From positions 39,922 through 103,921 of the forward strand of contig NZ_WHOB01000082.1 in the NCBI RefSeq assembly GCF_013141775.1: 64,000 bases of DNA, written 5' to 3'. The stretch is from Paenibacillus phytohabitans. GTDB lineage: Bacteria > Bacillota > Bacilli > Paenibacillales > Paenibacillaceae. Under the pieces are notes generated by a model, which saw only the letters and a program-made list of their open reading frames with translations, made no database searches and had not been told where the DNA came from. Positions 33,066-57,857 of the stretch are shown piece after piece. The position numbers and the translations under genes are program-made. The number at the start of each line of letters is the position of its first letter. Position 1 is the stretch's first letter.

Positions 33066-33077
33066 GAGTAGTTAATG

Positions 33078-33112
33078 AAGCGCCCTCTCTTTACGGAGAG
33101 GGTTTTTCTGTT
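33078..33112 (+). terminator. Rho-independent terminator at the left edge of the AT-rich island.
   Basis: CCCTCTC-tttacg-GAGAGGG followed by TTTTTCTGTTT. Confidence 0.65.
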
Positions 33113-33196
33113 TGTCCGGCCAGGGATGGCAGGACATCTTCTGGACATCTATAAGTAGTTGTGGGGGGATTTGCCGTGCTCCACTATAGGGTGAAT

Positions 33197-33760
33197 TTAA
33201 GTTGCAGTTTTCATGTTACTGCGTAGAATTTTGAAATCTTCTAATATATTGGAGATTCTTAGAATCATATCTCTATTCATATCTTGTTCTGTAGGGTTAT
33301 TTGGTAAGTACAAGCCCCACTGCTGAAACTTGCCCTCTAATAGAACAAATCCGGATACATGAGCTCCAAAACCATTTATTCTTGCAGATTCAAGAGTTAA
33401 TCTGTCGTCATGAAATACATTCACCAGTAGATTCTCAGTCCCCATGAAAAATACCGGATACGTTATGTTACTGAAAAAATCTTTATATTCCTGCTTGGCT
33501 GCTTCAGCCAGATAATCCTTTGCAATGATTAAGCCATCATAATTTATATTATGATCTTCAATAATATCTTTGAGGCTTTTGGGTATGTAGCTTAGATTTC
33601 TAATGTTATCAAAAGGAACATCACCAACAACTGCAATTTCTAACTGGATTGAAGGGGGATTATAAAGCTCCTCCGTCTGAGGCTCATTTACAATTTTGAT
33701 GTCACAGCTTACAAACAACACGGATAACAATATAAGAAGTAATAACATTTTGTTTTTCAT
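33197..33760 (-). CDS. Putative lipoprotein, hypothetical.
   Basis: Signal peptide with lipobox 'LFVSC'. AT-rich. Confidence 0.5.
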   Translation of the reverse strand: MKNKMLLLLILLSVLFVSCDIKIVNEPQTEELYNPPSIQLEIAVVGDVPFDNIRNLSYIPKSLKDIIEDHNINYDGLIIAKDYLAEAAKQEYKDFFSNITYPVFFMGTENLLVNVFHDDRLTLESARINGFGAHVSGFVLLEGKFQQWGLYLPNNPTEQDMNRDMILRISNILEDFKILRSNMKTAT

Positions 33761-33882
33761 TAGTGAGTATCCTTTTTTGTTTTATTATAATGGTTACTTT
33801 ATATTTAAAAATATAGAAAAATAATCCTTTTTGCAAGTGGATAATTAACTCGTTTGAGCCTCGAATGATAGGAGGAAGGAAA

Positions 33883-34191
33883 ATGAATGAAATAACCTCT
33901 CATAATTGTAATCTGAATATTTGGGCTCATCTGCCTGATGAAGTATGGAATACAGTTGCTAATATTTATGAGCGTATGCCTGGTTGGAGAGGGTACATAG
34001 ATGGGATTCCACACTGGTTTGGGCAGGAAGATGAGGATGTTTATATTCAGGCATCCGTTGAGCCAAGTGGATTATCATTCTTTGCTCGAATGAATCAGAG
34101 TGATTGGGATTCTTGGATTGGAGCGTTTAAATCAGAAGCAACTAAAGTGTTAGGGTTTGAGGTGGGGGAGCCTGAGGATGGGTTTGTGTAG
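33883..34191 (+). CDS. Hypothetical small protein.
   Basis: ORF with GGAGGAAGG RBS. No recognisable motif. Confidence 0.4.
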   Translation: MNEITSHNCNLNIWAHLPDEVWNTVANIYERMPGWRGYIDGIPHWFGQEDEDVYIQASVEPSGLSFFARMNQSDWDSWIGAFKSEATKVLGFEVGEPEDGFV

Positions 34192-34246
34192 TATGAAATT
34201 TTAGAAGGTAAGGCAATTCATAGATAACTCGAAAGCGGGTGTAAAC

Positions 34247-34819
34247 ATGAATATAAACCAAGCGATTAACGTTATAGATAAGGAATTATCTCAAACATTA
34301 AGTGACTACCAACACTGGTTTACTTTAAATCCCGAAGAACTATCCTTTAAACCTCAGACCGGATGGAGTATTGAACAAATATTAGAGCATGTAACACTAA
34401 CCAATCACTTTTTATTGATCCTAATAAGAAAAGGGACTCGGAAAGCAATAGAACTATCAACAAAGAAAGATTTAAATACAATAATAGAATCAAGCCAAAT
34501 TAATTTACAAGAGCTTGATGCGATAGCTATACATAAGTCTTTTGATTGGATCAGACCAGAACATATGGAGCCTAAAGGAGAAACAGAACTAGGACAAATA
34601 AGCGCATTACTAGATAATCAAATTAACGAATGTAAAGAGCTTTTGAAAGAGATGAGAAACGGTGAAGGAATACTTTATAAAACTACAATGACGGTAAATA
34701 GCTTAGGCAAGATTGATGTTTATCAATATATCTATTTTCTGTGCCAACATGCCAAACGCCACATTGTACAAATGCAAAAAGTAACGGATGAGTATAGCAA
34801 ATTAAGTGAGGCTGAGTAA
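34247..34819 (+). CDS. DinB/YfiT-like (DinB_2 superfamily) metal-dependent four-helix-bundle protein.
   Basis: His triad context 'EQILEHVTLTNHF' and C-terminal 'CQHAKRHIVQMQ'. Confidence 0.45.
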   Translation: MNINQAINVIDKELSQTLSDYQHWFTLNPEELSFKPQTGWSIEQILEHVTLTNHFLLILIRKGTRKAIELSTKKDLNTIIESSQINLQELDAIAIHKSFDWIRPEHMEPKGETELGQISALLDNQINECKELLKEMRNGEGILYKTTMTVNSLGKIDVYQYIYFLCQHAKRHIVQMQKVTDEYSKLSEAE

Positions 34820-35000
34820 TTCAGATTCATGGAATCAGCATTTGATTTGGTGAATTGAGTTAAGGACTTCTGATTATCAGGAGTCCTTTTCTGTGTAATT
34901 TTAGGAATTTCATGGATTTACATTGAGGATTGGGCTATCATTATTTTGTGCAGAGCAAGTGTTAGAGATTGAATTAGATCAACATGAAGAGGTGCTAGAA

Positions 35001-35330
35001 ATGGACGAACTAATCGAAAAAATCATCCAATTCCGCGACGACAGGGACTGGAAGCAATTCCACGATCCCAAAGATCTGGCGCTCTCTATCTCGCTAGAGT
35101 CTAGCGAACTGTTGGAACTCTTCCAATGGAAGAACAGCCAGCAAGCCATAGAGCAACATTACTCCGACATGCAGGACGAAATCGCTGATATTCTCATCTA
35201 CACGCTAACGCTCGTTCATGATTTGAATATCGACGTAAAGGAAGCTGTCCTTCAGAAAATAAACAAAAACGCGGAGAAATATCCGGTATCCAGTTCCAAG
35301 GGAAGTTCGCAAAAAAGTAAGCGGCAGTGA
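35001..35330 (+). CDS. MazG-like nucleotide pyrophosphohydrolase (small YpjD-type).
   Basis: 'ESSELLELFQW' and 'EIADILIYTLTLVHDLNIDV' MazG helices. GAAGAGGTG RBS. Confidence 0.65.
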   Translation: MDELIEKIIQFRDDRDWKQFHDPKDLALSISLESSELLELFQWKNSQQAIEQHYSDMQDEIADILIYTLTLVHDLNIDVKEAVLQKINKNAEKYPVSSSKGSSQKSKRQ

Positions 35331-35349
35331 ATGAATAGGGGAGAACTCC

Positions 35350-37242
35350 ATGATTATCTATGAATCGACCAAGCAGCAATTTATGAATGATGTGACCGAA
35401 GACAGCATTGCGGTAAAGATTCATAACCAGTACGTCCAAAAAGTCGGCAGAGTTTCCATGGGCGAAATCAACGCATGGAACAATTCCATGAACTACCTTT
35501 ATAAGGTATTAAACACATCAACCATTCCAGATGACGTAGGAATCGCGATTGAATATAAAATTCCAGCGACCTCGAGAAGAGTCGACTTCATGATTACGGG
35601 CTTGAATGAACAGGATCAATACTCTGTAGTTATCATTGAGCTTAAGCAATGGACAGAAGTTGAAACGGTTGAGGACGCGGATGGTCTTGTTAAAACCTAC
35701 TTTAATCGAACAAAGACTAGAACGCCGCATCCTTCTTTTCAAGCATGGTCTTACGCCAGGTTGATTAGCGAATATAACGAAACCGTGCAGAATGAAGCGG
35801 TCCAACTCTATCCTTGCGCTTATTTACATAACTATGTACAGACCGATAACGATCCTCTATTGCATCCTGTCTACAATCAATATCTGGAGGATGCTCCTGT
35901 CTTCTCTAAGGGAGATGCTCTAAAGTTAAGAGGGTTTATTTCGACTTTCATTAAAAAAACCGATAGAAGCAAGTCGCTTTACCTCATTGAACATGGCAAA
36001 ATTAAACCTTCTAAATCGCTGCAGGATTCACTCCTCAGTATGCTACAGGGAAATCAAGAATTCATTATGATAGACGATCAGAAGGTAGTATATGAAGAAG
36101 CATTAAGATTGGCTCAGCAAGCACAGTCGGGCAAGAAACAGGTCCTGATTGTCGAAGGCGGACCAGGGACAGGGAAGTCGGTTCTCGGAATTAATCTTTT
36201 GGTAGAGCTTACGGCAAGAGAACTAGTCTGCCAATATGTAACCAAGAATAGTGCGCCTCGTGCCGTGTACATGAAAAAGCTACAGCAAAACGTGAAGAAA
36301 TCGTTCATAGATAACTTATTTAAGGGATCAGGTGTGTACTATGAAGCATTGCCCGATGAATTCGGTTGCTTGATTGTTGACGAGGCGCATCGCTTAAATG
36401 AGAAGTCAGGCCTGTTCAAAAATAAAGGGATTAATCAGACGATGGAGATTATCCGCGCTGCCCGGTTTTCTGTATTTTTCATTGATGAATATCAGAAAAT
36501 CGCCATGCATGATGTGGGCAGCAAAGAGCAGATTAGACATTATGCCGAACAAATGGATGCGGATATTACTGAACTGACATTGGCTTCTCAATTCAGGTGT
36601 AATGGCTCCGACGGATATCTGGCATGGCTCGATGATGTGCTTGATATCCGTGAAACGGCAAATGCAGATGGGTTCGATTTCGACTATGATATCCGACTCT
36701 ATGATGACCCAAATGAATTACGGGATGAAATCTTCAGCAAGAATCAGATCAATAATAAGGCAAGAATGCTTGCCGGATACTGCTGGGATTGGAAGACGGA
36801 TGGCAAGAACAATCCTGGCGTTCATGACATTCAGCTAGATCAGTATCAATTCTTCATGAGCTGGAACCTTAACAATACGACGACCTGGGCGATCGACCCT
36901 GAATCCATCGAACAAGTGGGCTGCATACATACCTCACAGGGACTTGAATTTGACTATGTCGGAGTTATCATTGGCGAAGATATGCGTTACGAGAATAACC
37001 GTATCATCACCGACCCGTTCAAACGAGCGAAGACGGATAAGTCCCTTTCAGGCTTCAAGACCTTGTATAAGAAAGATAAGGACGAGGCGCTCCGAATGGC
37101 CGATCAAATTATACGAAACACCTACCGGACGTTAATGACCCGGGGAACGAAGGGGTGCTATATCTACTGTGTGGACCCTCATCTGAAGGCGTACTTGCAA
37201 AGGCGATTGGCTTTGCAAAGTTCGGCGGTAATTTCGGGATAA
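35350..37242 (+). CDS. DUF2075-family (Schlafen-like) ATPase with an N-terminal PD-(D/E)xK-like nuclease motif. Defense-island-associated.
   Basis: 'RRVDFMI...VVIIELKQW' (D...ELK), Walker A 'VEGGPGTGKSVLGINLL', Walker B 'LIVDEAHRL'. 630 aa. Confidence 0.55.
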   Translation: MIIYESTKQQFMNDVTEDSIAVKIHNQYVQKVGRVSMGEINAWNNSMNYLYKVLNTSTIPDDVGIAIEYKIPATSRRVDFMITGLNEQDQYSVVIIELKQWTEVETVEDADGLVKTYFNRTKTRTPHPSFQAWSYARLISEYNETVQNEAVQLYPCAYLHNYVQTDNDPLLHPVYNQYLEDAPVFSKGDALKLRGFISTFIKKTDRSKSLYLIEHGKIKPSKSLQDSLLSMLQGNQEFIMIDDQKVVYEEALRLAQQAQSGKKQVLIVEGGPGTGKSVLGINLLVELTARELVCQYVTKNSAPRAVYMKKLQQNVKKSFIDNLFKGSGVYYEALPDEFGCLIVDEAHRLNEKSGLFKNKGINQTMEIIRAARFSVFFIDEYQKIAMHDVGSKEQIRHYAEQMDADITELTLASQFRCNGSDGYLAWLDDVLDIRETANADGFDFDYDIRLYDDPNELRDEIFSKNQINNKARMLAGYCWDWKTDGKNNPGVHDIQLDQYQFFMSWNLNNTTTWAIDPESIEQVGCIHTSQGLEFDYVGVIIGEDMRYENNRIITDPFKRAKTDKSLSGFKTLYKKDKDEALRMADQIIRNTYRTLMTRGTKGCYIYCVDPHLKAYLQRRLALQSSAVISG

Positions 37243-37339
37243 GGCAATTGGGGGCGATAGAGAGTTATATTATTGATTTGAAAAGATTGAGGAAAGATTG
37301 ATTGGAGAGGGGGTAACCCGGAGCCATTCTGCCGATCCT

Positions 37340-37690
37340 CTGTTTTGTTATGGATGGGGATTAAAAGTCCTTGAGCAAACTGAAGCAATCACTGGAGGAC
37401 TCTTTCTATATCTTGCGTTAGAGAGAGAGGGGGAATGTGGCACCAGGATACCGTTATCTGCATGATAAATCAGGGATTTGTTATATCACGTTAGATAAAA
37501 AGAACATGCTCAAACATGAGTGATAATACAAATGCTATCTGATGGTATCAAACAGAGCTGTAGGTTAAGGATGATCCAGATACCCAAATCCCTATCACTG
37601 TGACGAGGTTGAAGCGATCAGACAAGCAAAGGGCCAGTGCCAGAGGATCTCTAATAGTAAGGGGCAGAAGCAAAAAAAGGACTTAAATTG
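37340..37690 (+). pseudogene. Degraded paralog of the 27502-28071 gene, including its RBS region, at about 75-80% nucleotide identity with in-frame stops.
   Basis: Direct alignment to 27490-27810, for example 'ccgttatctgcatgataaatcagggatttgttatatc' versus 'ccgttatctgcctgataaatcgggaatctgttacatc'. Stops 'tgagtgataa' and 'tag'. Confidence 0.75.
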
Positions 37691-37841
37691 GATATATCCA
37701 TACTGTTTTTTGCTAGTTATAAGACTATCGATAAAAGGGGAATATTCCATTTTTATATTCAAAGTAGAGCGACAGAGTTATAATACTTTCAGGTGTTACG
37801 GTTTAGAAAAGTATTACTAATAGTAAATACAGGGGATAAAT

Positions 37842-40800
37842 ATGGATAATGAATTCTTTAAAAGGCCTATACTCAATTCGCCTTATGAATATCCCGCAAG
37901 ATATTGGGAGTTAGATGAACAGGGTCAGCCTACGCATCAAATTATTAAAAATAGAAGGCCTGCTGAGTTTATCACACCGATTCCGAAACCTAGAAAAAGG
38001 AAAGAATCAGTCGAACAAATACAGATAGTATTTGATGAAGGCAGGGGGCTTTCAAATGAGGAACAACAGTACGATCCGACTTCAATTATCAATGCCATAA
38101 GGCGCCATGTGGATCACTGGAGAAACCTTCCGAATCCTGCTGATTGGCACGTCACTCCGGAAACCGCTCGCTTGCTCCAACATTGGCGTAATCATAAGTT
38201 CAGCAATACGCGCCCATTTTTTTGTCAGGTTGAGGCGGTTGAAACAGCCATTTGGTTAATAGAGGTAGCTCCAAAGATAGGTAAAACGGGGAAAGATTTT
38301 CTCGACCATCTTGTTAATGCTAGTAATGATGCGAATCCAGAACTGATAAGGCTTGCTCTTAAACTCGCAACTGGTGCAGGTAAGACGACTGTTATGGCAA
38401 TGGTCATAGCTTGGCAAACAATTAATGCAGTTCGTCGACCTACAAGCAACAACTTTACGCGTGCCTTCTTAATTGTTGCGCCTGGATTAACCATTCGTGA
38501 TCGGCTTAGGGTTCTTCAACCTAACGATCCTGATAGCTACTATAAAAGCCGGGAACTTGTCCCTAATGATATGCTTGGAATTTTGGATCGCACCAAGATT
38601 GTAATTACTAACTACCATGCGTTCAAGCTGCGCGAGCGGGTAGAACTTTCGAAGAGTGGTCGCGCACTTCTTCAGGGAAGAGGTGATGAACTCAATACCT
38701 TAGAATCTGAAGGGCAAATGCTCCAACGTGTACTACCGGAACTTATGGGTATGAAAAATATCATGATCATTAACGATGAAGCGCATCACTGCTATCGCGA
38801 GAAAAGGAGTTCAGATTCCGAAACGGAGATGACTCCGGATGAGAAGAAAGAGGCTGAGCTAAATAACGAGGCTGCTCGGTTATGGATTTCGGGTCTCGAA
38901 ACAGTTAATAGGAAAATCGGCATTAGACGAGTCATTGATTTATCAGCAACGCCGTTTTTCCTTAGTGGGTCGGGATATGCCGAGGGAACGCTGTTCCCTT
39001 GGACTGTGAGTGATTTTTCTCTAATGGACGCAATCGAGTGCGGTATAGTAAAACTCCCTCGTGTTCCCGTGGCTGACAATATCCCAGGAGGGGAGATGCC
39101 AAAATTTCGTAACCTTTGGGAGCATATTCGTGCTCGAATGCCGAAGAAGGGTCGAGGCAAAGCAAATTCACTCGATCCACTCAGCTTACCGGTTGAATTG
39201 TTAACCGCTTTAGACGCATTGTACGGTCACTACGAAAAAACCTTTGAGCTGTGGAAAGCTAGTGGTATTAAAGTGCCTCCGTGTTTTATTGTTGTTTGCA
39301 ATAATACTTCAACTTCTAAATTGGTCTATGATTATATATCTGGTTTTCAGCGTTTACATGATGATGGGTCTACAACTCTTGAGAATGGACGTTTAAAGCT
39401 TTTTCGTAATTTCGATGACATGGGAACCCCAATTGCACGTCCACGTACTCTTTTGATCGATAGCGAACAACTGGAATCTGGCAATGCATTAGACAAAGAC
39501 TTTCGGAATATGGCTGATGATGAAATACAACGTTTTCGTAGAGAAATTATAGAACGAACTGGTGATCGCCGACGGGCTGAGGCGCTCTCCGATCAAGAAT
39601 TGCTTCGCGAGGTCATGAATACAGTAGGTAGAGAAGGTCGCCTTGGCGAGTCAATCCGGTGCGTTGTATCAGTATCCATGCTTACAGAAGGGTGGGACGC
39701 TAACACGGTGACACATGTGTTAGGCGTTCGCGCTTTCAGCACTCAGCTTTTATGTGAGCAAGTTATCGGCCGTGCTTTGCGTCGACAATCATACGAATTA
39801 AATGAAGAAGGTCGTTTTAATGTGGAGTATGCGGATGTACTGGGAATACCGTTTGATTTTACAGCTAAGCCAGTTATTGCACCTCCACAGCCTCCTCGGG
39901 AAACAATTCATGTTAAAGCTGTTCGTCCTGAGCGTGATCATCTTGAGATAAAATTTCCACGGGTAGAAGGCTATCGAGTGGAACTTCCTGAAGAACGACT
40001 TTCTGCCATATTCGATACAGATTCCATTCTGGAACTAACTCCAGATATTGTTGGTCCTTCAATCACGAAAAACGCAGGGATTATAGGTGAAGACGTTGAC
40101 TTGAGTTTAGGACACTTAAAAGATATACGTGACTCGACACTACTTTTTAATATTACTAAACGTTTGCTCTACACGAAGTGGCGGGATAGTGGAGAAGATC
40201 CTAAACTTCATCTTTTTGGACAGCTCAAGAAGATAACTACGCAATGGCTTGACACTTGCTTGCTCTGCAGAGGGGGAACTTACCCAGCGCTGTTAATGTA
40301 CCAAGAATTGGCGGATATGGCCTGTAATCGTATTACTGCTGGCATTACCCGATCCTTGATAGGTGACAGGCCTGTCAAGGTTGTGCTTGACGCCTATAAC
40401 CCTAGTGGATCTACGAAGTATGTAAGTTTCAATACGTCGAAAGTAACACGTTGGGAAACAGATGTTAGGAAAAGTCACGTAAACTGGGTGATATTGGACA
40501 GCGACTGGGAAGCTGAATTTTGCCGTGTTGCCGAGTCACATCCATTGGTAAAGTCATATGTCAAAAACCATAATCTTGGGATGATGGTTCCGTACCGTTA
40601 TGGTTCTGAGCAAAGGAAGTACATTCCTGACTTTATTGTTCTCGTTGATGATGGACGTGGAGATGAAGATTTGCTACATTTGGTAATTGAAATAAAAGGG
40701 TATAGGCGTGAGGATGCTAAAGAAAAGAAAACTACAATGGATACCTACTGGATTCCTGGAGTTAATAACCTTGGCCGATATGGTCGTTGGTCTTTCGCTG

Positions 40801-40898
40801 AATTTACACAGGTTTACGAGATCGAATCTGATTTTGAGGCAAGATTACGGTCCGAATTCAATGAAATGATTATTTCAGCTACAACTCGAACGATGTAA
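37842..40898 (+). CDS. Type III restriction enzyme Res subunit-like SF2 helicase/endonuclease.
   Basis: Motif I 'LATGAGKTTVMAMV', motif II 'IINDEAHH', C-terminal PD-(D/E)xK 'IPDFIV...LVIEIKGY'. 1018 aa. Confidence 0.75.
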   Translation: MDNEFFKRPILNSPYEYPARYWELDEQGQPTHQIIKNRRPAEFITPIPKPRKRKESVEQIQIVFDEGRGLSNEEQQYDPTSIINAIRRHVDHWRNLPNPADWHVTPETARLLQHWRNHKFSNTRPFFCQVEAVETAIWLIEVAPKIGKTGKDFLDHLVNASNDANPELIRLALKLATGAGKTTVMAMVIAWQTINAVRRPTSNNFTRAFLIVAPGLTIRDRLRVLQPNDPDSYYKSRELVPNDMLGILDRTKIVITNYHAFKLRERVELSKSGRALLQGRGDELNTLESEGQMLQRVLPELMGMKNIMIINDEAHHCYREKRSSDSETEMTPDEKKEAELNNEAARLWISGLETVNRKIGIRRVIDLSATPFFLSGSGYAEGTLFPWTVSDFSLMDAIECGIVKLPRVPVADNIPGGEMPKFRNLWEHIRARMPKKGRGKANSLDPLSLPVELLTALDALYGHYEKTFELWKASGIKVPPCFIVVCNNTSTSKLVYDYISGFQRLHDDGSTTLENGRLKLFRNFDDMGTPIARPRTLLIDSEQLESGNALDKDFRNMADDEIQRFRREIIERTGDRRRAEALSDQELLREVMNTVGREGRLGESIRCVVSVSMLTEGWDANTVTHVLGVRAFSTQLLCEQVIGRALRRQSYELNEEGRFNVEYADVLGIPFDFTAKPVIAPPQPPRETIHVKAVRPERDHLEIKFPRVEGYRVELPEERLSAIFDTDSILELTPDIVGPSITKNAGIIGEDVDLSLGHLKDIRDSTLLFNITKRLLYTKWRDSGEDPKLHLFGQLKKITTQWLDTCLLCRGGTYPALLMYQELADMACNRITAGITRSLIGDRPVKVVLDAYNPSGSTKYVSFNTSKVTRWETDVRKSHVNWVILDSDWEAEFCRVAESHPLVKSYVKNHNLGMMVPYRYGSEQRKYIPDFIVLVDDGRGDEDLLHLVIEIKGYRREDAKEKKTTMDTYWIPGVNNLGRYGRWSFAEFTQVYEIESDFEARLRSEFNEMIISATTRTM

Positions 40899-40912
40899 AG
40901 GAGAAGTATTAA

Positions 40913-43708: not shown

Positions 43709-45214
43709 CAAATGATTCAAATGTGGGCAACATTAAGGACAAAAACATTCTAACCTTTAAGTTAATAATCTATGTAGAGTGAACTTAAAAATCTAACTTG
43801 CTGTATGGACGAAATCCTGGGTAGCAAGGAAGGCGTCTATCAGCTGGCCATCATTCTTAAGTTCTTCTTAATATAGTAGGGACTCATAAACTTAAATTAC
43901 TGGCCTAAGCGAATAGACGAAATACTAAGATACTGCAATTCATATGAGCGCCTTTTGGTGGGTGTGGTGGAATGGAAAAAAGACCGAATCAATATTAAAT
44001 TATTACCAAAGACCAAGCGTTAAAGGAAACATATGAAGTTTTAAGAAATAAACACATCCCAGAAGGGTGAAAAAAGATTTTCACAATTTAATAATGGTGA
44101 AAACTACCAAACAAAGTTTTCCTGGAAATTATTAGGAAATAAGTGTTGGTCACAAGGTGCTCTACTCAGTACATTGATAGTAGTAAAAAAGGATTGCATC
44201 ACGAGCTCGTAACCACAAAAAACTTAATTTATAAGAATCATTTGCCGATTCATTTTTTGGAGGTGGATTTAGAGGAACCTGAGTATTGGTTGGATGTGTG
44301 TATTCGCTTGCATGATTACTGATGAAGAGAATAAACTGTATTTGGGTGGGAAACTAACAACAAACATTAATGGTTTATGAGAAAATGGGCGAGTTACCTT
44401 AAGGCAGGTCTTACAGACATTTGGATTGTTAAATGGGAGGAAAGAACCTCAATTCAAACATAAAAAAAGACCTGATTTACGGAAAAAATTATATAAATTT
44501 ATAATTCATGATACCTCCTTAAAAGCGTGATCCATACGCTACAGCGAAACGAGGATTTGAACTTTCACGGTTCGCCGCTTTAGACCACATACAACTATAG
44601 AAGGATGCCCAATCGGGTATCCTTTATTTCGCTTTATAGAATCGTATCATAAATAGTAGTTAAGTAGAGTGGAGAATAATTATTATTTTTTTATTTTTAA
44701 TTATGATTTCACTTTCATTCCCCCAACACCTCCCCAACAGAAACCTCCAACGCTCTCGCAATAGCAACCACCTCATAATCCTGCATAAGTCTATATTGAC
44801 CTTCCAATCGCTATAAACTGGTTGGGCTACTTTCTAAGCCGAAGGTTTGTAACCTGGCGAGAAAATCCTTTTGCTTCATTCGCTTAGCTTTTTGAATGGA
44901 CCACTCGGGTTCTGATGATATTTTTGTCACCTGGTGGTTCTGGGCAATGCTTCATTTCGAAGTCGCCTCACAATATTTTATTTTATTTCGATATTCGCAT
45001 TAAAATAATACTTACCTCGCATACAATTGGATTAATACGCACTGAAATTTCTATATATCGTCTATAGACATACCCTTCCAGAAAGGAGGGAGTGTAATTC
45101 AACAACTAATGCACAAATACGAGGAGGAAAAGCGCAAGTTGAATGAACTCGGGCAGTGGTCACTGGAGCAGGGTATTTCGTTAAGCGGCAATGTAGCAAG
45201 CCCAGAGTCGTAGA

Positions 45215-45589: not shown

Positions 45590-45733
45590 GACGGAATCCA
45601 AGGTATACGTTAACTTTATGTTGGGGCTGTCCATGCGACAGTCTTTTTTTGTTGTGTATTTTTGGAAGGTAATCCTTCCCATATTGTCGAATTACCATAC
45701 ATATTGTAAATCCAGATGATATGAGGTTGGGCT

Positions 45734-46423: not shown

Positions 46424-46466
46424 CAACAGTAAAATACCTATCATTGGACTAAGGGAGTTAACATAC

Positions 46467-51042: not shown

Positions 51043-51255
51043 GGGAGTAAAGGATGCGTAATAGTAAGTGAAATAGAAAACGCAGCGGTACAGAGTTTAT
51101 CTGTATCGCTTTTTTTGGTGTATAACGATGAAGATTTAGTGAGATCTATTACAAATATTCCTATTCTAGGTATACTTAATGGCAGAGCTCTTAGGGAGCA
51201 GCCTTGTTTACGAAGCTGGATTACTGTGTGTTCTTAAGCGAACTAGCTTTTTACG

Positions 51256-54246
51256 ATGGAGATCAAATATATATTTCAGGAGTCTGATATGAACAGAGAA
51301 GCAGAAAGTGTTACAAAGTATTTCAGAAGTGCTGTGGCGGCCCAGGCAAATACAGGCTTGGATTTTAAAAACGATACCTTTTTTATTATTGAGCCCTCTC
51401 AATTGTTGGAGGGAAGAATTCATAGTGAGGTGTGCGAGAAGGTCTTTGTTGAAGCTAATAAGGATTCCAATGATGAGGGTTACAAGCCTAAAAAAACATC
51501 TATTAACGTCATTGCTTGTATTAAAACAGTAAAGACAATATATGAAGCAAGTGCCAAAATACAAGATGATATTGACGAGTTGACAGGACTGTTTTTTGTA
51601 CCTGCAAAATTAAACGATAACGGCTACCTTTCATTCGACTCTGATAATAAAAAGCTGCCATGGTTCCCCAGAGAGTACTTGCAACCGATGATAGAACCTA
51701 AATTAGCTATCGGTAGTGCAAGTAATGTTGATTCTTATATAAGTGACCATGTTGATCAAGTACAGTTGATTAAAACATGGGACGATTATCTCTCGTTTGT
51801 TATAGAGTTTTATGAAAAGATAACGAGTAGTAAATTTGAAGATAGCAGCATTACTAATGAAGAAGAGCATACTCAGATTGAACTGGAAAAGAATATGTAT
51901 CTTTTTATTGATAGCACAGTTAATGCTACATTCAATATTATGAGGCTGTATAATCACATCCTTGAAGATTCACAGGCTAAGCCCCTATATGATACCTTCA
52001 TTTCAACATCAGAAGCGATCTCGGAGCCATTGATTCCTAATTCACTGTCTAATATGTATTTGCATGCTGGACAAATGGGTGGAGAGTACCCACTATCTCC
52101 TTCTCAAAGAGAAGCCATTAATCATTACAATAATATGAATAACGGTGAAGTGCTGGCTGTCAACGGGCCCCCGGGAACCGGGAAAACCACGCTCTTACAA
52201 TCTATAGTTGCTGATACATATGTGAAAAGAGCAATTTCAGAAGACAAGCCGCCTCTGATTGTAGCAACATCAACCAATAATCAAGCTGTTACGAATATTA
52301 TTGCCTCCTTTGGCAATATTAAAAAAATGTTTGATTCGAGTCTTGAAGAACGTTGGGTAGAAGGTGTTCATAGCTTTGCTACTTATTTCCCTTCTGGAAT
52401 GAAAGTGAAGGAGGCGGCACAAGGCTATCAAATCACCAATAATAAAGGCGAATACTTTTTATCAGATATCGAGACGGAAACGAATATTAATAATTCCAAA
52501 GCTAAAATAATAGATCAATGCGGGAAACATTTTAGTAAAGAATTCAATACAGTGGGGGAGTGCCGCATTGCTCTTCACCAAGAGTTATTGTTCTTGGAGG
52601 AAAAGAAAAAAAATCTACTTGCCCTATGTGAGGAATCTAAACAATTCCATAATCCTGATTTCCCCATAAATCTGCAGTTAGATAAGCTTAAGGAAAAGAT
52701 AGATGGTTTCGAAGAGCAAATTCATAGATATCAAGATAGAGTATCTGGGTGGGAAGCGACATATAGCAAAGTACCTTACTTGGTTAGACTTTTCTCGAAA
52801 ATAATTAGAAAAAATCTCAAAAGAATTCAAACGGAATTCAGGCTATTTATTTCCACGGATGAGCTTACGATTCTTAATGAATACATGACTGTTGAAGACA
52901 TCAAGGAAATATACAGTCTCAAAATTTCTGAACTCCGGAGTTCATCTGTATCCTTACAAAAAGATGCACAATTCATTGAGGACTGGATTAAGAGTTATGA
53001 CGAACAATTGAAAATACTGAGAGAGCACGGGGTCACCCTCCATGATCACGAATCTGATATGTATAAGATTTCGATGGATACAATCAATGAACTAATTGAT
53101 AAGAAAATTCGTTACCATGAGTTTTGGTTAGCGGTTCATTACTTCGAATGTAGGTGGGCAAGCGGCGAAGATGAACTGAGTGACAAGCAAAAAGGCAGAA
53201 ATTATGAAAATGTACTTGTTAAATTGTATAACAGACTCTCTTTGATTACTCCTTGCTTAGTAATGACTTTCCACACGCTTCCCAAGCAATTCTTGGCATA
53301 TACAGGTCAGAAGAATACTTTTCTCTACAACTTTATTGATTTGTTAATTGTAGATGAAGCTGGACAAGTATCACCGGAACTTGCCGCTGGCGCATTCGCA
53401 CTCGCAAAGAAAGCGGTTGTCGTTGGGGATGTTTATCAGATTGAACCTGTATGGAGTGTTAACAAGTCGTTGGATAATACATTGGCTCTGACTAGCGGGT
53501 TAATCCAATCAGCTGACGAATACAGTAATTTAGAAGAGCTTGGTTTGACCAGCTTCGGATCAAGTGTAATGAAGGTTGCCTCAAAAAGCTGTAAATATGA
53601 AAAATATGATGAGAAGGGTTTGTTTCTATCCGAACATCGGCGTTGTTATGATGAAATCATAGATTATTGCAATAAGCTGGTGTATAGAGGAAACCTCATT
53701 CCTATGAGAGGAAGAGGAGCTAACCGTAAGAATCGTCTGCAAGCTTGGCCGCAAATGGGATTTCATCAAATTGAAAGCGATAAATCAAAGAAACAAGGAG
53801 CCAGTAGGTATAACCATACGGAGGCAGCTGAAATCGCTGAATGGGTGCATCAACATTTTGATACAATCCGTAGTGCATACCCGGAAGATGCGGAGAATAA
53901 TCTGATTGGAATAATAACGCCGTTTAAATCTCAAGTAGGATATATAAAAGCAGCATTAAAGAGAAAAATGCCTCAATTATGGAAAAAAATAAGTGTGGGC
54001 ACTGTGCATGCATTTCAGGGGGCTGAACGGAATATAATCATACTCTCAACAGTATATGGTGTGAATGATGGATGCTATTTTATTGATGCTAATAAGAGCC
54101 TCATGAACGTAGCCGTATCGCGGGCCAAAGATCATTTCTTTGTATTTGGGGATACTCGTTGCTTGAAAAATAACCAAAGTAGCGCTAGCGGACTGCTTAA
54201 ATCGGTTATGCAGGGAACAGTGAACGCTAAGGAAGTGAAAATATAA
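51256..54246 (+). CDS. Upf1-like SF1 helicase (AAA_11/AAA_12) with a ~300-aa N-terminal domain of unknown function. Alternative start at ATG 51289.
   Basis: Walker A 'VNGPPGTGKTTLLQ', Walker B 'LLIVDEAGQ', motif V/VI 'GTVHAFQGAERNIIIL', 'AVSRAK'. Large coiled insertion inside the RecA1 domain. Confidence 0.7.
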   Translation: MEIKYIFQESDMNREAESVTKYFRSAVAAQANTGLDFKNDTFFIIEPSQLLEGRIHSEVCEKVFVEANKDSNDEGYKPKKTSINVIACIKTVKTIYEASAKIQDDIDELTGLFFVPAKLNDNGYLSFDSDNKKLPWFPREYLQPMIEPKLAIGSASNVDSYISDHVDQVQLIKTWDDYLSFVIEFYEKITSSKFEDSSITNEEEHTQIELEKNMYLFIDSTVNATFNIMRLYNHILEDSQAKPLYDTFISTSEAISEPLIPNSLSNMYLHAGQMGGEYPLSPSQREAINHYNNMNNGEVLAVNGPPGTGKTTLLQSIVADTYVKRAISEDKPPLIVATSTNNQAVTNIIASFGNIKKMFDSSLEERWVEGVHSFATYFPSGMKVKEAAQGYQITNNKGEYFLSDIETETNINNSKAKIIDQCGKHFSKEFNTVGECRIALHQELLFLEEKKKNLLALCEESKQFHNPDFPINLQLDKLKEKIDGFEEQIHRYQDRVSGWEATYSKVPYLVRLFSKIIRKNLKRIQTEFRLFISTDELTILNEYMTVEDIKEIYSLKISELRSSSVSLQKDAQFIEDWIKSYDEQLKILREHGVTLHDHESDMYKISMDTINELIDKKIRYHEFWLAVHYFECRWASGEDELSDKQKGRNYENVLVKLYNRLSLITPCLVMTFHTLPKQFLAYTGQKNTFLYNFIDLLIVDEAGQVSPELAAGAFALAKKAVVVGDVYQIEPVWSVNKSLDNTLALTSGLIQSADEYSNLEELGLTSFGSSVMKVASKSCKYEKYDEKGLFLSEHRRCYDEIIDYCNKLVYRGNLIPMRGRGANRKNRLQAWPQMGFHQIESDKSKKQGASRYNHTEAAEIAEWVHQHFDTIRSAYPEDAENNLIGIITPFKSQVGYIKAALKRKMPQLWKKISVGTVHAFQGAERNIIILSTVYGVNDGCYFIDANKSLMNVAVSRAKDHFFVFGDTRCLKNNQSSASGLLKSVMQGTVNAKEVKI

Positions 54247-54277
54247 AATTCTACAACTGGAAATAAACTGAATCCCC

Positions 54278-54330
54278 AAAAAAAGCTCAAGCGCAGGCTT
54301 CCCATCCCTGCCTTTGAGCTTTTTTCTATG
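54278..54330. terminator. Bidirectional-looking terminator AAAAAAGCTCAAG...CTTTGAGCTTTTTT.
   Basis: 11-bp outer stem with A-run and T-run on either side. Confidence 0.6.
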
Positions 54331-54894
54331 CAGTTCAAGACTCCCCTCTGGAAATTTATTCTTCCGTCGTAATACTTTCGCCATGTTCGTTCGGGGGGAT
54401 ATCAGCGATGATAGAACCTGTAAGATGATAACGCCGAGCGCGTTCATCCTACATCCGGTTCTTATCCGGGCGGGCGTAACGAGGCGGGGATCTCAGGTGA
54501 TCCCGCAGTGCCGGCATGTATGTTACGGTATCCTGTACGGTCCGTTTCGGTAAGAGTCCCTAATCGCCTTCTAAGCGACGTTGGTACAGTACTCGATTTC
54601 CATCGAGCGACAATTGAAGCGCAATCTGAGTAAGGAAACCAATGGACAGAATCTCTGGCGGCTAGTAGAGCGCACTGCGGAAGGGCTTTGCAATCCGTGG
54701 ATACCGATGGTGCGGCAACTGGGGAGGCTGTGGCAAGGATTGAAGGGAACGAAGGCCGGCTGAAGTAGGGTTAGCCTCGGACCTCAAGTAGTCCTCCCGG
54801 ACCTCCCGGCAGGGCCGCCTGTCTCAAACGTGATTCCGCCTGAGCTGCAGCGGGATTCTGTCAGCCATTGGTCAAACATGAAGGAGGCATACAT

Positions 54895-55998
54895 ATGTTG
54901 AAGCAAATAACGATTCAAGCGGACCAGCGCGGTCTGCTCTTTCATAAGGGAAGTTATGTGAAGCGGCTGCTGCCGGGAACCTACCGTTACTTATCATGGT
55001 CGCAGCATACAGTGGCAGTACTGAATATTGCCAAACCGTTTGGTGTCGAGGGCAAAGACCTGCAGCTGTTCCTACAGGATGATGAACTCCTCCGGGAGCT
55101 CGATGTCGTACGCGTACAGGATCATGAGATTGTTCTGCACTATGAGGATGGCCAATTCATGCAGCTGCTGAAGCCGGGTGTGTATGCTTATTGGAACCTC
55201 CTGAGAAAGCACACCTTCGTACATACGGATATAGGGCAGCCGGAGCTGCCTGCCGGGATCGACCGCTCGATTATCTCGAAGCTTACTCCGTATGTGCAGT
55301 GCTGCGAAATCGCGAGCTACGAGCAGGGATTCCTGTTCTATGATCATACGCTCAAGCGGGAGCTTACGCCTGGTAAGTATTATTTCTGGAAGGGTCCGGT
55401 CTCGGTGCTGACGAAGACGGTCGATCTAAGACAACAGCAGATGGATCTGGTTGGCCAGGAAATGATGACAGAAGATAAGGTCTCGCTGCGTCTGAACTTC
55501 GTATGCCAGTACACCATCGTAAGTCCGCACCGCGTTCTGGAGATGAAGGCTTTTGACGAGCAGATACACATCCAGCTACAGCTCCTGCTCCGGGAATATG
55601 TCGGGACGCTGAAATTGGACGATCTCCTGAAACGAAAAGAGGATGTTGCCACATTCATTCTGTCCCGTATCCAGGAGAAGGAAGAGGCGTTCGGGGTGCG
55701 TTTCCTCGGGGCGGGGGTGAAGGATGTAATTCTGCCGGGGGAAATGAAAGACATCCTAAACACCGTGCTGCTCGCAGAGAAGAAGGCGCAGGCGAACCTG
55801 CTTACCCGCCGGGAAGAGACGGCTTCCACGCGCAGCCTGTTGAATACAGCGAAGCTGATGGATGAGAATCAGACACTGTTCCGTCTGAAGGAGCTGGAAT
55901 TCCTCGAGAAAATATGCGACAAAATCGGCTCTATCTCTGTAACCGGCGGTGGAGACCTCCTGGAGCGGTTAAGCTCGCTTATCGGCAGTAATAAGTAG
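54895..55998 (+). CDS. SPFH/band-7 (stomatin/prohibitin-like) domain protein with a ~180-aa N-terminal soluble region and no TM helix.
   Basis: AAGGAGG RBS. C-terminal half has the SPFH pattern and a coiled-coil tail ('VKDVILPGEMKDILNTVLLAEKKAQANL'). N-terminal half unassigned. Confidence 0.55.
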   Translation: MLKQITIQADQRGLLFHKGSYVKRLLPGTYRYLSWSQHTVAVLNIAKPFGVEGKDLQLFLQDDELLRELDVVRVQDHEIVLHYEDGQFMQLLKPGVYAYWNLLRKHTFVHTDIGQPELPAGIDRSIISKLTPYVQCCEIASYEQGFLFYDHTLKRELTPGKYYFWKGPVSVLTKTVDLRQQQMDLVGQEMMTEDKVSLRLNFVCQYTIVSPHRVLEMKAFDEQIHIQLQLLLREYVGTLKLDDLLKRKEDVATFILSRIQEKEEAFGVRFLGAGVKDVILPGEMKDILNTVLLAEKKAQANLLTRREETASTRSLLNTAKLMDENQTLFRLKELEFLEKICDKIGSISVTGGGDLLERLSSLIGSNK

Positions 55999-56134
55999 AT
56001 CGCCTCCTGGCGGTCTATTTTAGTGCGGATAGATAGAATTAAGCTTAGTCAAAGTTCCGGAAAACAGGTAATTACATAGAAGCTATAGAACTAAGCTATA
56101 GAGCGGATTAAGCCAAACCCGAGGAAGTGACTCC

Positions 56135-56929
56135 ATGGACAACAAAGCAAAGAAAATCCTCATGAACACCTTCTGGACCTCCGCTGGCTGGAAAAGCAGC
56201 CCTGCTGCCTTCACCGGTGAGGATTTCGACTATGCCAAAAGCAAAGGCCTGATGTTCGATCCTGTGACAATTACTCATGACGAGATTGTCTTGCGGCTGC
56301 ATGAGCTGCATGGGGCGATTACCAAGGAGCGGGCAGCGGCCGCGTTCCTGCACAGTCTGTCGACGAAGAAGGTCTATTTGCGGAGCGCCCTGTCAAGCTG
56401 GGTTCTGACTTCCGCGCTACCAGTACATACTTATGAGCAGCGGAGTGTTGTCCGGCCCAATTATAGCAGCTGCGGGGATTGTAACTTTTACAGATTAATG
56501 TCAGACCGGGAATATATAAATAATGATCTGAATGTGCTGAATTTCGAACGGGTCAAATGGGGCGGTATTCGTCTGAACTGGCTTTTATACTGCTGGATGG
56601 ACCTTGAATTATTAAGTAAAGAAGAAGAGTTCGAGGTTACCACCGAGGATACTGCCATACTCTCCGGGATGCTCGAAGCGATACGGGATTGTGCGGACCA
56701 TGAGAGTGCGCGGATGCTGGAGAAGCGGTGGAAGGACGTAATTCCCTCCAGTAAGAATGAACGGGATGTGTTGATGGAGGTCTGGGGCTATGCCGGATTG
56801 CTGGTACCGCGGGACACACCCCGGAAGCGCAAAGGCGGGAGTCATGATTTTAACTCTATGGCGGAGTGGCAGGGAGAAGACGGCTATTCTCAGGAGGCGG
56901 TAGAGTTGTATTTCGGCGCGTTTTTGTAG
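56135..56929 (+). CDS. Hypothetical protein (264 aa) immediately upstream of the NADAR gene.
   Basis: ORF with GAGGAAG RBS. No motif recognised. Confidence 0.45.
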   Translation: MDNKAKKILMNTFWTSAGWKSSPAAFTGEDFDYAKSKGLMFDPVTITHDEIVLRLHELHGAITKERAAAAFLHSLSTKKVYLRSALSSWVLTSALPVHTYEQRSVVRPNYSSCGDCNFYRLMSDREYINNDLNVLNFERVKWGGIRLNWLLYCWMDLELLSKEEEFEVTTEDTAILSGMLEAIRDCADHESARMLEKRWKDVIPSSKNERDVLMEVWGYAGLLVPRDTPRKRKGGSHDFNSMAEWQGEDGYSQEAVELYFGAFL

Positions 56930-56986
56930 ATTTACTATGAACTTGAATGACGGTTAGATAATATAGGACAAGGAGGCACGCTCATT

Positions 56987-57730
56987 ATGAACACCCCGGA
57001 ACACATCCAGAAGATACTTGAAGACAACAGAAGAAAGCTGCTGGCTCTCAATCCCGAAGAACGCTTTATACGCTTCTATGAAACAGATAAGCCTTACGGT
57101 TGTTTCTCTAATTTTGCCAAGTACCCCATTGTGTTAAAAGGCAAGGCGTGGGCAACCACGGAACATTATTTTCAGGCGCAGAAGTTCACAGGCACTGAGC
57201 ATGAGGAAGAGGTCCGGCTCGCCGGAACGCCGATGGAGACAGCACGGTTGGGGCGGGACCGGAGTAAGCCGCTTCGTTCCGATTGGGAAGAATGCAAGGT
57301 TGAGGTCATGAGAGAAGCGCTGATGGCTAAGGTTGAGCAGCATCCCGCTATAAAGTCCATCCTGTTGTCGACGGGCGATTGTACCTTAGTTGAACATACG
57401 GCCAATGATGCCTACTGGGGAGACGGCGGTAACGGCCAAGGCGGCAATATGCTGGGCAAGCTGCTGATGGAGATTCGGAACGGATTAGATGAATATGTGC
57501 CGGAATTCTTGCTGCCGCAATGGCTGGTGTATCCTGAAATTGAGCCGTTCAGCATTGGCTGGAGAATGGGGTATGGTGAAGATTACTTGATTCATTTACG
57601 GGAATGGAGAGAGCAGCAGTCGCCGGAGGCGCTGAAGGAGTACGATGCGTACTTCACTCCGCCGGAGGAGTGGGCTGAGGCTAAAAGAATCCAAGAGGAA
57701 TATAGGAAAAAGAATAAGGATCAGGACTGA
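56987..57730 (+). CDS. NADAR (YbiA/DUF1768) family ADP-ribose-processing hydrolase with a ~70-aa C-terminal extension.
   Basis: 'YGCFSNFAKYPI', 'TTEHYFQAQKF', 'NDAYWGDGGNGQGGNMLGKLLMEIR'. AAGGAGG RBS. Confidence 0.8.
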   Translation: MNTPEHIQKILEDNRRKLLALNPEERFIRFYETDKPYGCFSNFAKYPIVLKGKAWATTEHYFQAQKFTGTEHEEEVRLAGTPMETARLGRDRSKPLRSDWEECKVEVMREALMAKVEQHPAIKSILLSTGDCTLVEHTANDAYWGDGGNGQGGNMLGKLLMEIRNGLDEYVPEFLLPQWLVYPEIEPFSIGWRMGYGEDYLIHLREWREQQSPEALKEYDAYFTPPEEWAEAKRIQEEYRKKNKDQD

Positions 57731-57757
57731 ACCCCGTAGACAATCCATTACTTCATG

Positions 57758-57790
57758 CCGCCACCCTTCGTGGCGGTTTTCTTGTTTATT
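57758..57790 (+). terminator. Rho-independent terminator after the NADAR gene.
   Basis: GCCGCCAC-cctt-cGTGGCGG followed by TTTTCTTGTTTATT. Confidence 0.7.
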
Positions 57791-57857
57791 CTACGTTTAG
57801 CGCTGTCGTGTAGAATAAATTGATGTAGAAAAAATGAAAATAATGGAGGAAAAGGCA

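Follow-up and report, generated by a model that had tools for sequence, protein, structure and literature searches.

In a 64,000-nucleotide (nt) stretch of the Paenibacillus phytohabitans genome (contig NZ_WHOB01000082.1), a DJ-1/PfpI gene and a conserved hypothetical gene, orf264, enclose about 23 kb that we read, with a probability of roughly 85%, as a chromosomal defense hotspot, i.e., a slot at a fixed core-genome position filled by at least five independently acquired cassettes. The full stretch is called the window below, and all coordinates are window positions. The defense-type content of these 23 kb comprises a Type III-like restriction-modification (R-M) pair, an McrBC-type Type IV system, a helicase matching the MkoC profile, a NERD gene, and a DUF2075 candidate. 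This cargo differs in every relative examined, while the anchors are kept (DJ-1 in 80 loci; orf264 in L021, L082, L083, and L086). An earlier note, made from the sequence alone, had described the region as a mosaic accessory defense island, and the variation of the cargo among relatives agrees with that description, the region being far from conserved in all of them.

A variable slot between two conserved anchors

Relatives were gathered by a scan of species-representative genomes anchored on DJ-1, which gave 80 loci with 10-kb flanks, and further loci (L081 to L086 among them) were collected through homologs of the superfamily 1 (SF1) helicase and of orf264. Locus names stand for P. jilunlii (L001), P. 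tritici (L003), P. ihuae (L021), and Paenibacillus sp. IHBB 3054 (L082); L081 is a Logan assembly, and L083 and L084 are metagenome relatives. Gene families were called with Pfam, PADLOC, and NCBIfam profiles, and these calls uphold the gene list of the earlier note (DinB-like, MazG-like, DUF2075, Type III-like R-M pair, McrBC, SPFH, and NADAR). The two anchors are as follows.

32448–33065, plus strand: DJ-1/PfpI gene (Pfam DJ-1_PfpI, 100 bits), the left anchor
56135–56929, plus strand: orf264, encoding a conserved hypothetical protein of 264 amino acids (aa), the right anchor

The DJ-1 protein is 75 to 91% identical (aa) across the 80 genome loci. Its closest counterpart is that of P. jilunlii (91%), followed by those of P. 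silagei, P. tritici, and Paenibacillus sp. FSL K6-1217 (87 to 88%), and the genome sits in the P. jilunlii/graminis neighborhood of Paenibacillus. Genes upstream of DJ-1 are syntenic in the closest species (SF0329, a response regulator with a histidine kinase, and CBM5/12-SLT). Past DJ-1, homology with the relatives stops at 33092–33162.

On the other side, orf264 has 255 homologs, nearly all of ~262 to 287 aa (a few, at 226 to 242 aa, are truncated), in Paenibacillus, Cohnella, Fontibacillus, Saccharibacillus, and Lysinibacillus. None of the 255 has a Pfam domain, and a sequence search of the PDB gave nothing usable. What precedes the gene changes from locus to locus: in L021 it is McrC, in L082 the helicase, in L083 SPFH, and in L086 a remnant of McrC that itself follows DISARM. 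The point at which homology is regained is 56119 for L021 and L082 and 56009 for L086. In these comparisons orf264 behaves like a conserved chromosomal gene, and the defense slot proper is therefore taken to run from DJ-1 to orf264, about 23 kb. The earlier note had set the right border at the FIVAR surface-protein gene; the conserved border is orf264 (56119/56135).

The occupants of the slot differ from species to species. P. jilunlii shares with the window the run orf108-DinB-MazG-DUF2075 (89% nt identity); next come a gene for an OLD/Gabija-GajA-like ATPase, another large gene without assignment, and a fragment of a tyrosine integrase (Pfam Phage_integrase, 56 bits). In P. silagei, the slot contains a Type II methyltransferase of the Dcm type next to an unassigned 245-aa open reading frame (ORF), the MazG-DUF2075 pair, a Dam-like methyltransferase, and a STALD/SIR2-like gene. 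Other slots hold a lipoprotein ORF and a Type I R-M system (P. tritici), a different McrBC-like pair (FSL K6-1217), or a 1965-aa DUF4011 Hhe-like helicase with a NERD gene (Paenibacillus sp. NFR01), and that of P. ihuae holds NERD, McrB, and McrC alone (6.2 kb), followed directly by orf264.

The loci gathered through the helicase and orf264 vary in the same manner. L081 is 94.4% identical (nt) to the window over 44719–56502, with a Type I R-M system replacing the Type III-like cassette. In L082, an Mrr_cat gene is added, McrB has an MrcB_N domain, and SPFH is missing; the helicase there is followed by orf264, a 386-aa gene, and iron-uptake genes. L083 carries an IS66 transposase and a truncated McrB (a 279-aa MrcB_N fragment), has lost McrC save for the last ~160 bp, and is 94.5% identical (nt) to the window over 50879–56977 versus 80.9% over 44723–46396. 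In L086, DISARM and a 273-aa McrC remnant (PDDEXK_7) stand before orf264.

One breakpoint, 44718/44719, is common to L058, L081, L082, and L083. Others lie at ~47481 (L082), 51042 (L021; 51042–51051 for L021 and L086 together), 54224 (L082), and 56119 (L021 and L082). The resulting map has cassette A at 33.1–37.7 kb, B at 37836–43715, a spacer at 43716–44718, C at 44719–51042, D at 51.05–54.22 kb, and E at 54225–56118, with the orf264 anchor beginning at 56119.

That the region is simply core DNA of unusual composition, conserved in all relatives, has next to no probability. Conservation of orf108 and orf264 beside the anchors and the host-like GC of the McrBC 3' part, SPFH, and NADAR would fit such an origin, but the content is different in every relative examined, and neither Res, Mod, SPFH, or NADAR nor the full-length helicase was found within 10 kb in any of the 80 DJ-1-anchored loci.

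Composition and marks of mobile elements

The GC z-scores are relative to 25 flanking genes in 1–33 kb, which have a mean GC of 53.1% (standard deviation [SD], 2.9) and a mean GC at third codon positions (GC3) of 62.8% (SD, 4.9). The change in composition begins at a hairpin.

33082–33103, plus strand: terminator-like hairpin after DJ-1, where the GC drop starts

The earlier note was right that a terminator-like hairpin stands here, though not in its position, which it gave as 33078. Directly past the hairpin, GC falls from ~52% to 33 to 46% and stays low until ~47.5 kb; it is 50 to 60% at 47.5–51.1 kb, 33 to 42% at 51.1–54.3 kb, and host-like at 54.4–57.7 kb. Overall, GC is 44.0% for 33101–57800 versus 51.9% for 1–33100. 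Cassettes A, B, and D and the 5' part of McrB have z-scores of −3 to −7: lipo187 has 34% GC (z = −6.6), DinB 33% (z = −7.0), DUF2075 43.5%, Res 43.6%, Mod 43.0%, and the MkoC-like helicase 37.9% (z = −5.3); the spacer at 43.7–44.7 kb has 34%. The C-terminal part of McrB, McrC, SPFH, orf264, and NADAR are host-like (51 to 53%; z ~0). GC first switches back to a host-like level within McrB (~47480), not at a gene boundary, and the region contains at least three distinct GC classes. The composition anomaly is real and far beyond noise. Both the drop after the terminator and its patchiness, with McrBC (47.5–51.1 kb) and SPFH/NADAR (54.4–57.7 kb) richer in GC, had been described in the earlier note and hold at the level of genes.

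The window has no tRNA or tmRNA and no Rfam match across its length; neither the ORFs of the island nor the 20 large ORFs of 1–26 kb yielded an integrase or a transposase. Direct and inverted repeats at the borders of the island and of the cassettes were only chance-level matches of 16 to 28 nt. Phage structural genes and conjugation genes are absent from the region, and the counts of a promoter scan were not above shuffled expectation. The statement in the earlier note that the window holds no integrase or tRNA was correct, as was its remark that the mechanism of mobilization is not evident.

These observations bear on the possibility that a single integrated mobile element (a genomic island, an integrative and conjugative or integrative and mobilizable element [ICE/IME], or a degraded prophage) entered whole and later lost its integrase and attachment (att) sites. 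Such an element would explain why low GC begins abruptly past the terminator, and it finds support in the tyrosine-integrase fragment of the P. jilunlii slot, in the IS66 transposase of L083, and in the finding that most defense islands of Escherichia coli are carried on mobile elements (PMC10121019). It is nevertheless very improbable, since the window lacks an integrase, a transposase, a tRNA, and flanking direct repeats, and phage structural and conjugation genes are missing as well. Three or more GC classes, and relatives that carry different subsets of cassettes at different identities, also argue against entry as one unit, as does the R-M cassette, which is found alone elsewhere with homology bounded by its own gene edges. 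For the defense hotspot as we read it, mobile elements are not needed to explain this instance.

The restriction systems of cassettes B and C

Cassette B consists of two genes.

37842–40898, plus strand: Res, 1018 aa, of the BPTD_3080 family (NCBIfam NF046055, 1379 bits with a cut-off of 800, profile positions 2–968 of 970)
40913–43708, plus strand: Mod, a 931-aa N6/N4 DNA methyltransferase (PADLOC MTase_III PDLC03632, 1315 bits, profile positions 74–982 of 983)

Res contains the Pfam domains ResIII and RE_endonuc; Mod matches N6_N4_Mtase (Pfam, 109 bits), with DPPY and FxGxG-type (AdoMet) motifs in its translation, and the lengths of both proteins (1018 and 931 aa) equal those of their P. polymyxa counterparts. 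Given full-length profile matches, equal lengths, and the expected motifs, the R-M cassette looks intact. Mod would mark self DNA, and Res, a predicted helicase-nuclease, would cut DNA that is unmarked. The pair resembles classical Type III R-M systems (EcoP15I-like) in its N6_N4_Mtase-class Mod and in a large Res with a superfamily 2 motor (ResIII, DEAH) and a C-terminal PD-(D/E)xK nuclease, and JGI and NCBI label its homologs "type III restriction enzyme." It differs from them in gene order, here res and then mod, and in its Res, which belongs to the separate BPTD_3080 family and scores only ~18 bits on the PADLOC REase_III profiles.

The cassette (37836–43715; 5.9 kb) is 80% identical (nt) to DNA at an unrelated locus of P. 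polymyxa, where homology stops 6 to 7 bp outside the genes. Twenty-six plasmids of Proteobacteria and Cyanobacteria carry related cassettes, and 14 of these plasmids are predicted to be conjugative or mobilizable. Judged by these borders and this distribution, the R-M cassette is a self-contained, compact mobile unit. As a separate observation, Res is 79 to 87% identical (aa) to more than 100 proteins of Bacillota, Proteobacteria, Nitrospirae, Armatimonadota, and other phyla, all of ~1013 to 1025 aa, and this conservation across phyla is unusually tight for a restriction enzyme.

The DNA between cassettes B and C is of another kind.

43716–44718: AT-rich stretch (1.0 kb, 34% GC) lacking ORFs of at least 60 aa

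It has no match in any compared locus by tblastx or blastn and no Pfam match on six-frame fragments; a terminator-like hairpin lies at 44600–44625. Where the earlier note saw gene debris, 44719–45589 indeed holds two demonstrable pseudogenes, but 43716–44718 is assignable to no gene. The pseudogenes open cassette C.

44719–44955, minus strand: pseudogene of an 81-aa divergent XRE-like gene (frameshift by a 2-bp deletion after 44899)
45097–45589, plus strand: pseudogene of a 165-aa gene with weak Spo0E likeness (start ATG changed to ATT at 45097; 5-bp deletion after 45196)
45734–46423, plus strand: NERD gene, split into 45734–46024 and 46058–46423, with Pfam NERD on each half
46467–48656, plus strand: McrB-like gene, 729 aa (Pfam AAA_5, 34 bits; PADLOC PDC-M26A, 185 bits; weak match to McrB PRK11331 over the motor)
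48586–51042, plus strand: McrC-like partner with DUF2357 and PDDEXK_7 (Pfam, 219 and 171 bits)

The three upstream genes are decayed in the window and intact in relatives. The XRE-like gene is intact in L058, L081, and L082, with weak HTH_3/HTH_26 matches below the Pfam cut-offs. The 165-aa ORF is intact in L058, L081, L082, and L083, and a 124-aa ORF with a GTG start (45215–45589) is all that remains of it here. NERD, intact at 228 to 238 aa in L021, L058, L081, L082, and L083, was rightly called a pseudogene in the earlier note; codon comparison with the relatives places its defect in a single in-frame nonsense codon (GAA to TAA at 46022–46024), not in a frameshift. In addition, the 55 bp between the XRE-like and 165-aa genes (44974–45028) are inverted relative to L058, L081, L082, and L083: they align in reverse orientation, at 89 to 91% identity, and the DNA on either side aligns in direct orientation. 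The inversion could be mutational, or the 55 bp could be a small invertible promoter or operator segment.

McrB and McrC are full length, in contrast to the three decayed genes upstream of them. The McrC gene start overlaps the end of the McrB gene, a terminator follows McrC at 51084–51110, and McrC has 804 aa in L081 and L082; a PDB sequence search with McrC gave nothing usable. McrB falls outside the E. coli McrB equivalog family (29 bits versus a cut-off of 637), and its residues ~160 to 323 match the EVE domain of VcaM4I (PDB 6YEX; E = 1.5e−10), which flips 5-methylcytosine and 5-hydroxymethylcytosine (5mC/5hmC; PMC7897488). On the strength of this match, the most fitting reading of McrBC is a Type IV restriction system that is driven by GTP, depends on modification, and has an EVE-like reader: the EVE-McrB GTPase would read modified cytosines, and the DUF2357/PD-(D/E)xK McrC would cut. 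Like E. coli McrBC and VcaM4I, the system combines an AAA_5 McrB motor with a PD-(D/E)xK McrC nuclease encoded by overlapping genes, and its N-terminal reader is homologous to the base-flipping EVE domain of VcaM4I. Unlike E. coli McrBC, it has an EVE-like reader in place of the E. coli McrB N-domain, and its McrC is of 804 to 818 aa and includes DUF2357.

The two parts of the McrB gene also differ in composition. Codons 1 to 338 have 44.6% GC (GC3, 43%), and the remainder has 53.4% (GC3, 62.5%). The junction at ~47481 coincides with the switch to an MrcB_N N-domain in L082, a domain also present in L083. Because the GC junction is the very point at which the reader switches in L082, it suggests a swap of reader domains by recombination within the gene and indicates that the specificity domain of McrB (EVE-like versus MrcB_N) has been exchanged by intragenic recombination.

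The MkoC-like helicase of cassette D

Cassette D would be a single-gene system built on an Upf1-like helicase related to Mokosh MkoC.

51256–54246, plus strand: Upf1/Senataxin-like SF1B helicase, 996 aa, 38% GC (Pfam AAA_11 and AAA_12; PADLOC MkoC, 967 bits)

The earlier note had listed this gene as an orphan SF1 helicase. It is an SF1 helicase, but not an anonymous one: it is the best PADLOC match to Mokosh MkoC, covering profile positions 1 to 963 of 1136, with the last ~170 positions unmatched, and it matches UPF1, SETX, and IGHMBP2 both by sequence and by predicted fold. No Pfam domain of the phospholipase D (PLD) type was found in it or in its 120 listed homologs. Its N-terminal 280 aa have no nuclease-like or other fold match in the PDB, and no HxK motif stands among the conserved residues of this N-domain. 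The family is large, with more than 2000 proteins at E ≤ 1e−10, and the 120 listed homologs, from Paenibacillus, Brevibacillus, Clostridia, and others, are nearly all of 960 to 1010 aa. Among phage records we found six matches, all distant and partial, and the helicase is not evidently phage-borne.

The helicase might also have been an MkoC truncated at its 3' end whose PLD domain disappeared at the GC junction at 54.3 kb. We rejected this possibility, since the 120 listed homologs are nearly all of the length given above and lack PLD, and since the ORF ends at a hairpin (54279–54325) that is conserved in relatives.

Mokosh is defined by an RNA helicase and a PLD nuclease (bioRxiv 10.1101/2022.12.12.520048). 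The gene shares with Mokosh type II (MkoC) the 967-bit profile match, the Upf1/Senataxin-like fold, and the setting of a single-gene cassette in a defense context, whereas the PLD nuclease, a feature of MkoC, is missing. For this reason it is not filed as Mokosh type II, though it is related to the Mokosh helicase. Tentatively, it may belong to a widespread family of PLD-less Mokosh relatives that would act as stand-alone anti-phage systems, through the 280-aa N-domain or through helicase activity alone (e.g., RNA or R-loop remodeling).

Cassettes A and E

The left end of the slot, next to DJ-1, is occupied by the following genes.

33197–33760, minus strand: lipo187, a 187-aa lipoprotein-like ORF (34% GC) on a 0.7-kb indel
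33865–34191, plus strand: orf108, a semi-conserved neighbor of DJ-1
34247–34819, plus strand: DinB_2 superfamily protein (33% GC; Pfam DinB_2, 39 bits)
34923–35330, plus strand: MazG-like nucleotide pyrophosphohydrolase (Pfam MazG-like, 63 bits)
35350–37242, plus strand: DUF2075/Schlafen-group-3 helicase, 630 aa (Pfam SLFN-g3_helicase, 342 bits)
37288–37682, plus strand: 5' part (395 bp) of an SF0329 paralog, a truncated pseudogene at the end of cassette A

Of these, the DinB, MazG-like, and DUF2075 nuclease-helicase genes would form a candidate system. The translation of DUF2075 reads a Walker A motif (GGPGTGKS), a DEAH box, and an N-terminal VDF...IELK motif that is PD-(D/E)xK-like. Its PADLOC matches are partial (PDC-S41, 63 bits; AbiO, 45; Nhi, 39); no full-length Nhi or AbiO profile match was obtained, the 39 to 45 bits extending over ~150 profile positions only, and a PDB sequence search gave nothing usable. 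Its motifs and partial matches make DUF2075 a candidate nuclease-helicase defense gene. The likeness to Nhi, AbiO, and Schlafen-like proteins lies in the DUF2075 (SLFN group 3) core and the N-terminal PD-(D/E)xK-like motif; the differences are that the core matches are partial (39 to 63 bits) and that DUF2075 is here always paired with a MazG-like gene, which to our knowledge is not a component of Nhi or AbiO. The MazG-DUF2075 pair is also found in L001, L002, and L034, and MazG adjoins DUF2075 wherever DUF2075 occurs. A 109-aa MazG/PRA-PH-like gene also adjoins NERD in L083 (3610–3939 of that locus), and small MazG-type pyrophosphohydrolases therefore recur in two cassettes of the hotspot.

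The remaining genes of cassette A have a patchy distribution. DinB_2 is shared only with P. jilunlii among the 80 DJ-1-anchored loci (90% aa identity). The product of orf108 is 82 to 84% identical (aa) in L001, L002, and L004, where the gene lies immediately past DJ-1, and it has no family match in Pfam or PADLOC. Likewise without a match in Pfam or PADLOC, lipo187 is absent from P. jilunlii, P. silagei, and FSL K6-1217 and found in P. tritici. Its segment (33036–33709 versus 12255–12926 of L003) is 94% identical (nt) to that of P. tritici while the adjoining DJ-1 is only 87% identical, which suggests that the segment was recently exchanged between species. The SF0329 fragment is 74% identical (nt) to 27494–27814, within the SF0329 gene of the left flank (27502–28071; Pfam SF0329, 199 bits). 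SF0329-like sequence past DJ-1 also occurs in P. jilunlii (after DUF2075) and in P. tritici (after orf108), and these fragments look like a relic of an earlier organization of the locus.

Cassette E contributes one gene, for an SPFH protein.

54868–55998, plus strand: SPFH/Band-7 gene (Pfam Band_7, 65 bits) on a 1.9-kb indel (54225–56118)

SPFH has no PADLOC match. It is present in L081 and L083 and absent from L021, L082, and L086. The ~620 bp 5' of it (54247–54867) have a host-like GC of ~53%, hold no ORF, and are 94% conserved in L081 and L083; tblastx and blastn searches of the compared loci, six-frame Pfam searches, and Rfam gave no identification. Possible identities of this segment are a long leader, a small gene missed by annotation, and an RNA.

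Proposed turnover of the slot

Under the hotspot reading, cassettes would arrive by horizontal transfer, the R-M cassette for instance on plasmids, and the island would not be moved as a unit by an integrase of its own. Gain, loss, and exchange between lineages would proceed by homologous recombination through the anchors and through internal cassettes that the lineages share, a route to which the breakpoints point. Occasional illegitimate insertions and deletions at cassette edges would leave remnants such as the SF0329, McrC, MrcB_N, and NADAR fragments.

Several points weigh against this reading. The exchange between lineages by recombination is deduced from breakpoints. No empty site, in which DJ-1 is directly followed by orf264, occurs among the compared loci, the smallest slot being the 6.2 kb of P. 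ihuae; the comparison with relatives proposed in the earlier note delimited the island (DJ-1 to orf264) but did not yield the empty site it had looked for. Both anchors fall within one 10-kb-flank locus in L021 only, the other loci being anchored on one side, and the DNA closest to the window, at 94% identity, stems from short-read assemblies. The integrase fragment of L001 and the IS66 transposase of L083 indicate that mobile elements sometimes land in the slot. Finally, SPFH, DinB, MazG, and orf108 have no defense-family match and four genes are decayed, so that part of the content may be neutral cargo.

Carried further, this last point leads to a slot that is a neutral landing pad or sink that collects selfish DNA and junk (addictive R-M systems, decaying genes) and whose defense flavor would be a by-product of self-spreading R-M or toxin-like genes. 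The four inactivated genes (XRE-like, Spo0E-like, NERD, and the SF0329 fragment) would be expected of such a sink, as would 1 kb of AT-rich DNA without assignable origin, the several genes without a defense-family match, and the remnants in relatives (273-aa PDDEXK_7 in L086 and 279-aa MrcB_N in L083). We regard it as unlikely, because Res, Mod, McrB, McrC, the helicase, and DUF2075 are full length with intact catalytic motifs and because recognized or candidate defense genes were found in the slot of every relative with cargo that was examined. Enrichment in defense genes is the accepted signature of defense islands.

Flanking genes and other variable segments

Beyond the right anchor, two further genes were recorded.

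56987–57730, plus strand: NADAR/YbiA-type gene (TIGR02464 N-glycosidase domain, 140 bits with a cut-off of 73.7)
from ~57831, running off the window: surface-protein (FIVAR-type) ORF of more than 2060 aa

The earlier note had included NADAR in the defense island. The gene lies outside the DJ-1-orf264 interval, scores 88.5 bits on the anti-phage DS32_2 model (cut-off, 240), has otherwise only a weak PDC-M42C match, and has no toxin neighbor that would suggest a DarT-type antitoxin. As it passes only the cut-off of the YbiA-type domain and fails the anti-phage model, it is not counted as defense.

NADAR and the surface-protein gene are present in L085 (91 to 98% nt identity). L083 and L084 lack both, save for a 147-bp NADAR remnant (10850–10996 in L083 and 1606–1752 in L084, equivalent to 57092–57238 of the window) that stands after orf264 and directly before the 386-aa gene. 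Given this reduction to a remnant, NADAR and the FIVAR-type gene constitute a second region of variation, separate from the slot and beyond orf264. The alignment of L085 to the surface-protein gene jumps from 59929 to 60607 of the window (~680 bp), which is consistent with variation in repeat number within that gene.

To the left, the first 33 kb consist of chromosomal genes of the usual kinds, including those for ABC permeases, two-component systems, CorA, a tRNA methyltransferase, a cellulase, and Dus. A four-gene cluster at 17354–22044 encodes ORFs of 449 and 411 aa without a Pfam match, a radical-SAM/SPASM enzyme, and a GFO/IDH/MocA oxidoreductase, and it may serve peptide modification or sugar modification. 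Two 1-kb bins with 44% GC stand out at 10001–13000 in a flank that otherwise has 51 to 57%; they surround a beta-lactamase-family gene (10286–12163) and the intergenic DNA before a leucine-rich repeat protein gene (12854–14755), possibly another small accessory patch.

Relation to known hotspots and implications

The immigration control region of E. coli contains the hsd Type I R-M system, mcrBC, and mrr. This region, known as hotspot #37, is the closest analog of the Paenibacillus slot: in both, a fixed slot between conserved genes is nearly always occupied and has variable contents, and in both, these include classical R-M systems, McrBC-type Type IV systems, and Mrr/NERD-type nucleases (here, Type I R-M in L081 and Mrr_cat in L082). 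Hotspot #37 is occupied in 97% of genomes and harbors 31 types of systems (PMC10121019). The slot differs from it in phylum, in its anchors (DJ-1/PfpI and orf264), and in its protein families (BPTD_3080 Res, EVE-McrB, and DUF2357-McrC), and it carries in addition a Mokosh-like helicase, DUF2075, and SPFH. The core defense hotspots (cDHS) of Pseudomonas aeruginosa hold defense cassettes between core genes without the hallmarks of mobile elements, and their turnover is attributed to recombination through the flanks. An integrase-free core slot is common to them and to the locus described here; the organism and the flanks differ, and the comparison made here covers individual relatives, not populations.

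Hotspots in which defense cassettes are swapped without an integrase have been described in detail for E. coli, Pseudomonas, Vibrio, and Acinetobacter, and the conceptual addition made by this locus is small, such hotspots being already known. Its value lies in Paenibacillus itself, a genus of agricultural importance in which immune systems have been poorly surveyed. DJ-1/PfpI and orf264 provide a usable pair of anchors for mining defense cargo across the genus, and the locus displays exchange at base-pair resolution, both of whole cassettes and of domains (the McrB reader at ~47481). Candidates for unrecognized systems in the slot are the MazG-DUF2075 pair, SPFH, the XRE/Spo0E-like/NERD trio, and the unannotated genes of L034. 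Novelty lies mainly in the PLD-less MkoC-like family; the remainder is expected defense-island biology. Automated tools would label this family "Mokosh type II" in spite of the missing nuclease, which matters for the accuracy of annotation, and the family may point to a different effector logic.

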